In this document: positions 6,411-51,667 of the stretch, piece by piece
How positions within the stretch are numbered: the first letter of the stretch is position 1
Layout of the letters: the number at the start of each line of letters is the position of its first letter
Source of the DNA: Chiloscyllium plagiosum
Lineage: Eukaryota
NCBI RefSeq assembly: GCF_004010195.1
Contig: NC_057751.1
Location: 7,964,137 to 8,028,136 of the forward strand
Length of the DNA: 64,000 nt
Direction: 5' to 3'
Notes under the pieces: model-generated
The model's input: only the letters and a program-made list of their open reading frames with translations
The model's database searches: none
What the model was told of the DNA's origin: nothing
Position numbers and translations under genes: made by a program

Positions 6411-6671
6411 TTTAGAGGTCCCTTGGGGTCCAGCATTTCCAATAAACACTCCCATGTCAGCAGTGAGGGGGGGGGAGGAGAGGTGGGGGGAGACAGGAAG
6501 AGAAGAGGCGCGGTGAGGAATTTGAGGAGGTTGTTTGGCAACGGGTCGAAGAACTTGGAACAAATTGTTTAATTTTCCACCCTCTTCTTACTCCAATAAG
6601 GTTGTCCATGAAAACAAGATCACCAATGCAGAATGACATGCAAATTCGTGAAGCGTTCCATATTTTTAAGT

Positions 6672-23320: not shown

Positions 23321-23688
23321 CCCGTTTCTGACTGTTTTCAGTTTTCAAGGGCTCCTTAAAACCACATTCATGAAAATGCTGCCTTTATGTGCTGGAAGAG
23401 CCTGGCAAGGAGTAAGGTGTTTTTTTTTTTAAGTACAGGTCTTCAGGAATATTGCCATAAATTTGTGAGGGCCCAGTGACTTCAGCCAATTAGTGGGCGG
23501 CACCCGTTTCTGACTGTTTTCAGTTTTCAAGGGCTCCTTAAAACCACATTCATGAAAATGCTGCCTTTATGTGCTGGAAGAGCCTGGCAAGGAGTAAGGT
23601 GTTTTTTTTAAGCACAGGTCTTCAGGAATATTGCCATAAATTTGTGAAGGTCCAGAGAGTGTGCAGCACCCAGTGACTTCAGCCAATT
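23321..23688. repeat. Local tandem duplication of ~170-185 bp
   Basis: Copy 1 at 23321-23491 and copy 2 at 23503-23688, separated by agtgggcggca. Confidence 0.92.
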
Positions 23689-24556: not shown

Positions 24557-25152
24557 AAGGACAAATACATATAAGCCAGGAAGATGGATGAGGACTAGGT
24601 CGTGGATGTTTTTACGAACTTGACGGTTCCCTCACCACCTGCCACAGACAACGTCTAGCAGCAACATTCTTCAGGACCCAACCAACACGGTCAGCAGTGG
24701 CATGACTAAGCCACTCTTGGTGGTGGACGTTGAAATTCCCTGCCCAGAATATGGTCTACATTCTTCTTAATCTCAGTGTTTCCTTCTGATGTTGCCCAAC
24801 TTGGAGGGACACTGTTTTTTGTTCACCTGAGGCGAGATGGTCTGTGGTAATCAGCAGGCTGCTTCTTCGCCCGTCTTAATTTGATCCTGTGAGACTCCAC
24901 AAGTTCCAGAGCTGATTTTGAGGACAACTTAACTCCCCAGTGTATGCCACTGTGCCGGTCCTGTCAGTGGGATTAATGTGGTTACTGATGCATTGGTCAA
25001 TGTGGTTTTGTTCCTTTTATCAGGCCTCATGTTGGTGAGACACAACTGCGTTACTTTCAAAATCACTTCAAATGGCATTTCAGGGTTAACCAGATTGTTG
25101 AGGATCTGTCATCACGTGTACTCCAGTCCAGGTGAGTATAGCAGATTTTCCA

Positions 25153-25429
25153 AACACCTTCTTGACGAACACTGTCCGATCGACTGGTGTACGCTCCTCC
25201 ACCTTCTTGACAGACACCCTGACGGTGTTTCGAACCCCCTGCCCAGGGCTGCGCGCCGCTGTTGAGGCCATAGCTCTGAGGTTGGCTGGTCCCTGAATTG
25301 GCGTTAGGCCGAAGCCAGCATGAAGATCCACCAATAGCAGGTCAGCACAACCAAACGATCCTCTAACGTCCAGTCACGATCCAGCGATGATCTCCACTAG
25401 CTCTGATGACTCGCAACTCGACCCCTGTC
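25153..25429 (-). mobile_element. 5'UTR and ORF1 N-terminus of a Tx1-clade (Keno-like) non-LTR retrotransposon
   Basis: The ATG at 25271 opens MASTAARSPGQGVRNTVRVSVKKVEERTPVDRTVFVKKV, which resembles the N-terminus of Tx1/ZCCHC3-like ORF1 proteins. CpG-rich and directly downstream of a U2 fragment. Confidence 0.75.
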
Positions 25430-25476
25430 CTGATAAGAACAGACACTTGATCTTAGCCAAAAGGCCGAGAAGCGAT
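25430..25476 (-). pseudogene. RNU2: U2 snRNA 5' fragment (nt 1-52 with nt 35-39 deleted)
   Basis: The minus strand reads ATCGCTTCTCGGCCTTTTGGCTAAGATCAAGTGT-CTGTTCTTATCAG, identical to the vertebrate U2 5' end except for the missing AGTAT. Confidence 0.95.
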
Positions 25477-25859
25477 GAACCAGGTAGATCTTTACGACAA
25501 TTGACAGTGATTGTGGTTTTTTTTACTTCTCATGGAGCTGGTCCCATTGGGCCGAGCTTCACCTATTACATCCTCTCCATTGTCAAGATTACTGACATTC
25601 ACCCCCACAACCGGGACCATAAAACATTTTTAGAACCAAGGTTACCCATGGGTACAGGGGGCAAAAGTTGGCATCTGGAGTTCTGTTGCAGATCAACATG
25701 ATCTCATTAAATGGCAAAGTAAATAGATGGTTTGTGTTCTTTTGTCCAATTGGTCCTTAAACCCTCATGAGTTTTTCAATTCAAACACTGACTTGTTTGG
25801 TTTGACAAAATGCCTCTTGTGCAGATTTCAGACAATCCCAAGCTCCAATGGTTACTCTG

Positions 25860-30967: not shown

Positions 30968-31100
30968 AAAAATCACACAACACCAGGTTATAGTCCAACA
31001 GGTTTATTTGGAAGCATTAGCTTTCCAAATAAATCTGTTGGACTATAACCTGGTGTTGTGTGATGTTTAGCTTTGTCGTCCCCAATCCAACACCAGCACT
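30968..31100. mobile_element. Short palindromic Penelope-derived element (internally deleted relative of 45238-45607)
   Basis: atcacacaacaccaggttatagtccaacaggtttatttggaa...ttccaaataaatctgttggactataacctggtgttgtgtgat inverted repeat. Confidence 0.8.
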
Positions 31101-50115: not shown

Positions 50116-51667
50116 GAGACAAGAGTGAGGGAGACAAGAGTGAGGGAGACAAGAGTGAGGGAGACAAGAGTGAGGGAGACAAGAGTGAGGGAGACAAGAG
50201 TGAGGGAGACAAGAGTGAGGGAGACAAGAGTGAGGGAGACAAGAGTGAGGGAGACAAGAGTGAGGGAGACAAGAGTGAGGGAGACAAGAGTGAGGGAGAC
50301 AAGAGTGAGGGAGACAAGAGTGAGGGAGACAAGAGTGAGGGAGACAAGAGTGAGGGAGACAAGAGTGAGGGAGACAAGAGTGAGGGAGACAAGAGTGAGG
50401 GAGACAAGAGTGAGGGAGACAAGAGTGAGGGAGACAAGAGTGAGGGAGACAAGAGTGAGGGAGACAAGAGTGAGGGAGACAAGAGTGAGGGAGACAAGAG
50501 TGAGGGAGACAAGAGTGAGGGAGACAAGAGTGAGGGAGACAAGAGTGAGGGAGACAAGAGTGAGGGAGACAAGAGTGAGGGAGACAAGAGTGAGGGAGAC
50601 AAGAGTGAGGGAGACAAGAGTGAGGGAGACAAGAGTGAGGGAGACAAGAGTGAGGGAGACAAGAGTGAGGGAGACAAGAGTGAGGGAGACAAGAGTGAGG
50701 GAGACAAGAGTGAGGGAGACAAGAGTGAGGGAGACAAGAGTGAGGGAGACAAGAGTGAGGGAGACAAGAGTGAGGGAGACAAGAGTGAGGGAGACAAGAG
50801 TGAGGGAGACAAGAGTGAGGGAGACAAGAGTGAGGGAGACAAGAGTGAGGGAGACAAGAGTGAGGGAGACAAGAGTGAGGGAGACAAGAGTGAGGGAGAC
50901 AAGAGTGAGGGAGACAAGAGTGAGGGAGACAAGAGTGAGGGAGACAAGAGTGAGGGAGACAAGAGTGAGGGAGACAAGAGTGAGGGAGACAAGAGTGAGG
51001 GAGACAAGAGTGAGGGAGACAAGAGTGAGGGAGACAAGAGTGAGGGAGACAAGAGTGAGGGAGACAAGAGTGAGGGAGACAAGAGTGAGGGAGACAAGAG
51101 TGAGGGAGACAAGAGTGAGGGAGACAAGAGTGAGGGAGACAAGAGTGAGGGAGACAAGAGTGAGGGAGACAAGAGTGAGGGAGACAAGAGTGAGGGAGAC
51201 AAGAGTGAGGGAGACAAGAGTGAGGGAGACAAGAGTGAGGGAGACAAGAGTGAGGGAGACAAGAGTGAGGGAGACAAGAGTGAGGGAGACAAGAGTGAGG
51301 GAGACAAGAGTGAGGGAGACAAGAGTGAGGGAGACAAGAGTGAGGGAGACAAGAGTGAGGGAGACAAGAGTGAGGGAGACAAGAGTGAGGGAGACAAGAG
51401 TGAGGGAGACAAGAGTGAGGGAGACAAGAGTGAGGGAGACAAGAGTGAGGGAGACAAGAGTGAGGGAGACAAGAGTGAGGGAGACAAGAGTGAGGGAGAC
51501 AAGAGTGAGGGAGACAAGAGTGAGGGAGACAAGAGTGAGGGAGACAAGAGTGAGGGAGACAAGAGTGAGGGAGACAAGAGTGAGGGAGACAAGAGTGAGG
51601 GAGACAAGAGTGAGGGAGATAAGAGTGAGGGAGATAAGAGTGAGGGAGATAAGAGTGAGGGAGATAA
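50116..51667. repeat. 15-bp minisatellite (GAGACAAGAGTGAGG)n, ~103.5 units
   Basis: 100 apparently perfect units at 50116-51615, three GAGATAAGAGTGAGG variants, then a partial unit. Confidence 0.99.

Follow-up and report, generated by a model that had tools for sequence, protein, structure and literature searches.

In the window, by which we mean the whole 64-kb stretch of DNA analyzed here, a 324-bp fragment lies on the minus strand (25153..25476). From its 5' end, it is composed of a head derived from U2 snRNA (25430..25476), a LINE 5' leader of 158 nt (25272..25429), and the start of a Tx1-type ORF1 (25153..25271). U2 +1 falls at position 25476, as the first-pass annotation had placed it, and the Rfam U2 match (E 1.6e-4, 39.8 bits) stays below the 46-bit gathering score because the 5' part of U2 alone is present. 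That annotation had the head running without interruption to U2 nt 52. The end point is correct; the continuity is not. The head is 47 nt long and corresponds to nt 1-33 plus 39-52 of the canonical U2 gene (L051), with which it is otherwise identical, and the missing 5 nt (U2 nt 34-38, with one base of ambiguity) fall between 25444 and 25443. These nucleotides lie within the branch-point-pairing stretch of U2, and the deletion breaks both this stretch and the Keno target site. Stem-loop I is still predicted in the head, and the Sm site and the 3' part of U2 are absent.

The leader is CpG-enriched, as proposed earlier, with an observed/expected ratio of 0.70 vs 0.32 for the whole window, and is common to a sister subfamily carrying a different U2-variant head. 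An older, second U2 head within the leader was considered and rejected, the matches being of 7 and 12 nt only. The ATG of ORF1 is at 25271 and opens a frame of 39 codons plus 2 nt, the length previously noted. When searched alone, the 39-aa peptide matched no Pfam family; it is, however, identical to the first 39 aa of the ORF1 of L003, which runs on in the same frame into ZCCHC3-type RNA-binding domains (RBD1/2; PF23058, 5e-27, and PF23057, 7e-17) and zinc knuckles (zf-CCHC; PF00098, 9e-8). The assignment to a Tx1-type ORF1 is thus upheld through the L003 continuation and not by the peptide itself. The fragment contains no ORF2.

Both flanks belong to one old dispersed repeat that hosts the insertion. 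Its upstream part (25477..25530, minus strand) contains no PSE: with a matrix built from 7 U2 promoters, the window copy scored -0.5, vs leave-one-out scores of 8.6-24.7 for the real promoters. Downstream (25064..25152, minus strand), the same repeat resumes with no polyA or target duplication at the break. A search of the 64-kb window recovered no U2 remainder and no other parts of the element. The first-pass annotation was right on the lack of a PSE and of a U2 remainder.

The 3' break appears to be private to this copy. It was shared by none of the 29 best other loci and none of the 37 scorable long loci, and the nearest relatives of the fragment are full-length copies (97.5-98.5%). Intact copies of the host repeat (2/2 informative) have 17 more bases at the insertion spot. 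A contig of DNA run X8 carries an empty allele, with 18 bp between the flanking sequences, and the first 3 of these bases are also those with which the head begins. This makes the insertion a recent one, with a normal join at its 5' end. Neither a tail nor a target duplication was found, and 15-18 bp of target were lost. The truncation is compatible with damage at integration or with a deletion soon afterwards, and L1 cases in which target DNA was lost are on record (PMC1920257). The window copy is one-off debris, and the suggestion that a 5'-only form marks a short non-autonomous family is not supported.

A dispersed family of U2-headed copies

A search of the genome (3.56 Gb) with the 324 bp returned 655 first-look candidates, of which 40 were scored; among the 41 matches listed, 40 were 95-100% identical to the query. 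The exact deleted head was counted 107 times (reversed control, 0) and the undeleted head, with this leader behind it, 3 times. This disproportion argues that the head is inherited from a source copy rather than added afresh at each insertion. The first-pass annotation proposed to check whether all copies begin at U2 +1; 26 of 82 heads do, and the others begin at +2 to +19. An upstream flank of a U2 gene is common to none of the heads. Not one of the 101 exact heads examined (107 counted) continues as U2, and none of 105 deleted-head copies has a U2 promoter, the best score being 6.8 vs a background 99th percentile of 6.9.

Among the 82 heads in long loci, the first tail lies at least 4.2 kb away in 38, at 2.2-4.2 kb in 8, and at 1.4-2.2 kb in 12; one has a shorter tail distance, and 23 have no tail in range. 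An exact target duplication of 6-22 bp is present in 37 of the 59 tailed copies. A typical copy runs into an assembly gap 300-2500 bp past the head and resumes at a common polyA end, and the four gap-free copies span 5.0-5.6 kb with broken frames. The copies are young, with identities of up to 98-99%, and polymorphism exists at one insertion. In sister copies L242 and L273, ORF2 matched PF03372 (Exo_endo_phos, 26.6 bits) and PF00078 (RVT_1, 125 bits), both over the cut-off, and its C-terminal zinc motif matched PF13966 (zf-RVT) at 27.0 bits, just under the cut-off of 27.5. Matches to the RT include proteins titled 'transposon TX1 149 kDa' (39-45% identity), as well as BAD04856.1 and BAC82621.1 (44% identity), which are titled only 'reverse transcriptase' and 'pol-like protein' and are not verifiable as Keno. 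Judged by these features, the family is a dispersed Tx1-clade (L1 group) LINE of ~5-5.6 kb with an APE-RT ORF2, polyA, and target duplications, and the U2 head is built into it.

The head itself varies among relatives. At the 30 loci examined of the sister subfamily, the same leader is preceded by a head made up of another U2 variant's nt 1-38 plus an ORF1 piece. Single dispersed relatives carry heads of two further U2 variants, and the heads of dispersed relatives overall match at least three further variants. The deleted head is present on three separate ORF1 lineages in a tree of the 46 copies having both segments (copies without both were dropped), most inner forks of which are unresolved.

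Several derivatives were also encountered. ORF1-only copies of ~1.6-1.9 kb, with polyA and, in the majority, target duplications, constitute a real short headed form; L266, L283, L291, L255, L234, L288, and L233 have the same deleted U2 head and a tail of their own (frames were checked in 2 of these 7), and most of them form a separate ORF1 clade (100/99 support). L086 is SINE-like, with the head alone, a short A tail, and an 11-bp duplication, and L290, of 351 bp, is a deletion derivative that retains head, leader, and tail and has a duplication. Ten exact copies of the LINE 3' tail form a tandem array at 174-bp spacing (C12:79790701-79792302).

U2 genes, resident elements, and target choice

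A single canonical U2 gene (L051) is present in the genome. No source copy was found behind the canonical or the L055-type U2 promoter; each of these promoters was found once, with its gene intact. Vertebrate U2 genes are often multicopy (PMC5493778), and a canonical U2 array may therefore be collapsed in the assembly. One U2-variant promoter gave 12 matches. In 6, U2 gives way at nt ~33-54 to a member of the LINE group, which is full-length in two cases; the other six comprise 2 intact genes, 1 that joins within the promoter, 1 that stops at nt 93, and 2 that are uninformative. At L314, a PSE and nt 1-38 of a U2 variant precede a 5.2-kb element with polyA, after which the U2 variant continues from ~nt 27. 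L316 is a second, decayed PSE-linked case resembling L314, and in L186 the element meets U2 at nt 52 on its 5' side and at ~nt 42 on its 3' side. The full-length copies linked to a promoter belong to the sister subfamily, are older (L314 is 84% identical to L273), and reside in variant genes. In the search for full-length masters inside U2 arrays that the first-pass annotation proposed, the full-length residents found were of the sister subfamily (L314, L316); none has the deleted head. Other U2 loci are also of note. L051-L080 include several diverged types of U2-variant gene, each with its own PSE; the L055-type variant has many dispersed retrocopies, some reading through past the mature 3' end; and L297 and L298 are intact U2-variant genes in which Tx1-group pieces begin about 220 bp past the gene end.

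Three further loci join element tails to U2. In L183 and L184, a window-subfamily tail is followed by canonical U2 from nt 39-40, and in L185 a sister-subfamily tail is followed by nt 38-190 of a variant U2; the U2 5' part is absent from the DNA retrieved for all three. Such pieces would most simply stem from RNA that U2-resident copies produced by read-through. For Keno, the published 3' target starts at U2 nt 39 (PMC6136364), the same base as in these tail-U2 joins. Were U2 nicked at 38/39 and 14 bp duplicated, the element would be preceded by exactly U2 1-52, i.e., by the undeleted head.

The U2 specificity that defines Keno is not displayed by the family; only a minority (L183, L184, L185) fits. 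A U2 3' flank was found in none of the 59 headed copies with a tail and in none of 30 sampled tails, and the targets of those 30 tails show no weak U2-like consensus either (mean match 8.07 vs background 7.75). The claim that the element carries U2 as its 5' end is borne out by the 107 dispersed heads, and strict membership in Keno fails because most copies lie outside U2. Tails lie within the group's own sequence in 7 of 30 cases, the flanks being otherwise varied; heads border on such sequence in 16 of 82 cases, 8 of which are at ORF1 nt 342-347. Self-insertion has a hotspot at element nt ~335-370 (ORF1), about 20-45 nt beyond the break in the window; the loci concerned are L237, L253, L256, L270, L271, L274, L283, and L320. 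This hotspot has a 5-nt word in common with the U2 site used in L314.

Origin and transcription of the head

We consider it probable, with some reserve, that a Tx1 LINE copy, cut short at its 3' end in a one-off event, accounts for the 324 bp, and that the head of this LINE likely arose when a Keno-type element entered a U2 gene, the U2 promoter then likely driving its transcription. The first step of the scheme we propose is shown by the resident copies: members of the group enter U2 or U2-variant genes around nt 27-42, and their 5' junctions fall at nt 38 or 52-53. The external PSE would start transcription at U2 +1, and the RNA would therefore carry U2 1-52 before the leader and the ORFs. 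Targeting is loose, and the majority of copies end up outside U2, frequently within other members of the group and with duplications of 6-22 bp; these daughters begin at +1 or slightly further in and lack a U2-type promoter. A source copy appears to have lost nt 34-38, beside the Keno nick site, and to have given rise to the form that now dominates 107:3. The loss would remove both the element's own target site and the pairing of U2 with the branch point, and the deletion may have been selected for. Finally, the window copy would have lost ~4.7 kb or more of its 3' part during or soon after integration, together with 15-18 bp of target.

Because some relatives reside in U2 genes, the family likely borrows the U2 promoter. 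The chimeric-transcript origin put forward in the first-pass annotation gains indirect support from the 6 of 12 variant promoters that lead into the group (L314 and L316 among the resident cases), from L186, and from the three tail-U2 loci. Against it, 0/105 of the deleted-head copies lie behind a PSE, and the sole canonical promoter leads into an intact gene. Moreover, transcription of snRNA genes yields short, non-polyadenylated RNA and involves a special elongation complex (PMC5493778, in the part accessible to us), so a 5-kb mRNA from an snRNA promoter is not a given. A more far-reaching version makes U2 and its variant genes the launch pads of a LINE lineage derived from Keno: rare full-length insertions come under an snRNA promoter, the target duplication sets the length of the U2 head on their 5-kb RNA, promoterless daughters are scattered by loose targeting, and selection in the dominant subfamily favored a 5-nt deletion abolishing both the endonuclease target and the branch-point pairing of U2. 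We regard this version as conceivable but somewhat doubtful.

The strongest alternative, which we nevertheless think unlikely, is that the U2 head was captured once, either by insertion into a U2 gene or by a template switch to U2 RNA, and now belongs to the element as its 5' end, transcription relying not on U2 genes but on a promoter inside the CpG-rich leader or on flanking DNA. The deleted head is fixed in 101/101 exact matches examined, none of which continues as U2 or has a PSE, and the leader has the CpG ratio (0.70) noted above. The same head also occurs on three ORF1 lineages, which is likewise compatible with a self-sufficient head-plus-leader swapped by recombination. Kojima 2015, in the text available, prefers to explain snRNA heads by template switching and their transcription by flanking promoters (PMC4494074). 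Against a single capture, the head ends at nt 38 and nt 52 match the 5' junctions of real insertions into U2 genes, tail-plus-U2 pieces begin at the Keno site in three cases, and the 5' ends of the copies stop at +1 with no common extension. In addition, the available text of Kojima 2015 states that snRNA genes are not reported to have an internal promoter (PMC4494074).

It is improbable that the 3' truncation is an assembly error, in which the 5' piece of a heterozygous full-length insertion was joined to the downstream flank. Most copies in the assembly do break into gaps 300-2500 bp past the head. Furthermore, one individual carries an empty allele, and no contig of 4 DNA runs bridges the inserted junction, the absence of such cover in runs X1, X2, and X9 carrying no evidential weight. 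However, no N occurs in the window, unlike at other broken copies, where the gaps remain; the junction is clean and lacks 15-18 bp of target, like the L1 insertions with target loss (PMC1920257).

Far less probable still is the idea that each copy takes a fresh U2 head through a template switch to free U2 snRNA during reverse transcription. Occasional odd heads (L153/L321, L159, L086) and the three short tail-U2 chimeras, which require a template jump, agree with it, but 107 heads share a deletion (vs 3 undeleted) that occurs in no examined U2-gene match, and for the window's subfamily the idea is largely refuted by this common deletion.

A short non-autonomous U2-headed family defined by the 3' break in the window is hardly credible: short headed derivatives do exist, namely ORF1-only copies (12/82 at 1.4-2.2 kb), one copy of 351 bp, and one made of the head alone, the latter two having polyA and duplications, but no other scored copy (655 candidates, 40 scored) has this break, the window copy has neither polyA nor duplication, and its nearest relatives are full-length.

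Known systems and significance

U2-headed Tx1 LINEs are already in print (Kojima 2015, PMC4494074), and the present family adds a member. In the accessible part of that study, crocodilian Tx1-Mar families include Tx1-11_Crp with a U2 head, and Tx1-2_Crp, Tx1-2B_Crp, and Tx1-4_AMi with U1 heads; they cluster with Keno and prefer targets of the Mariner-N4_AMi type. The present family resembles them in belonging to the Tx1 clade, in its snRNA-derived 5' head, in lying outside U2 genes, and in recurrent head addition. It differs from Tx1-Mar as described there in its young copies, a polymorphic insertion, visible full-length relatives resident in U2 genes, a fixed head deletion at the Keno nick site, and a secondary target in the group's own ORF1 (PMC4494074).

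The family may be said, by analogy, to work like a relaxed Keno without Keno's defining specificity. Both have an APE-type endonuclease, and some insertions have a 3' flank from U2 nt 38-40; unlike in the available descriptions of Keno, specificity is largely lost, several junction points occur in U2 genes (~nt 27, 39, 42, ~57), and the 5' part of U2 travels with the element (PMC6136364, PMC4640811, PMC4494074). SINEU-1/2/3 likewise have a U2-derived head with internal deletions and a Tx1 partner, but they are described as <500 bp, non-coding, and polyadenylated, whereas the window fragment is coding and tailless and has a single-copy break (Kojima 2015, PMC4494074). R2, which is co-transcribed with 28S rRNA, borrows the promoter of its target gene; its endonuclease is restriction-like and it remains within its target, while here the borrowed head is found genome-wide (PMC4494074). 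In its loss of target DNA, the window copy resembles non-classical L1 insertions (PMC1920257). No description of this family was found in the literature searched; Repbase, subscription papers, and supplements, where it may be catalogued, lay outside that search.

The transcription of snRNA-headed retroposons is left open in the accessible text of Kojima 2015 (PMC4494074). The present genome shows the intermediates together, i.e., intact U2 genes, PSE-backed full-length residents, dispersed headed copies, and tail-U2 chimeras, and the borrowing of a promoter is therefore directly testable. If the proposed scheme is true, an snRNA promoter yields a translated RNA of 5 kb, and the only sources are copies that re-enter a U2 gene. 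The launch-pad version, if true, would explain how snRNA-headed LINEs and SINEU are transcribed. The family as such is of modest importance.

Elsewhere in the window, the 3' third of a U6 snRNA (6629-6667, plus strand; E 0.23) is followed directly by a common SINE-like repeat and is probably a small retrocopy. A local direct duplication of ~156 bp (96%) lies at 23321-23658, a near-perfect inverted repeat with a below-threshold MIR2606 match at 30979-31057, and a 15-bp unit repeated 103 times at 99% at 50116-51664.
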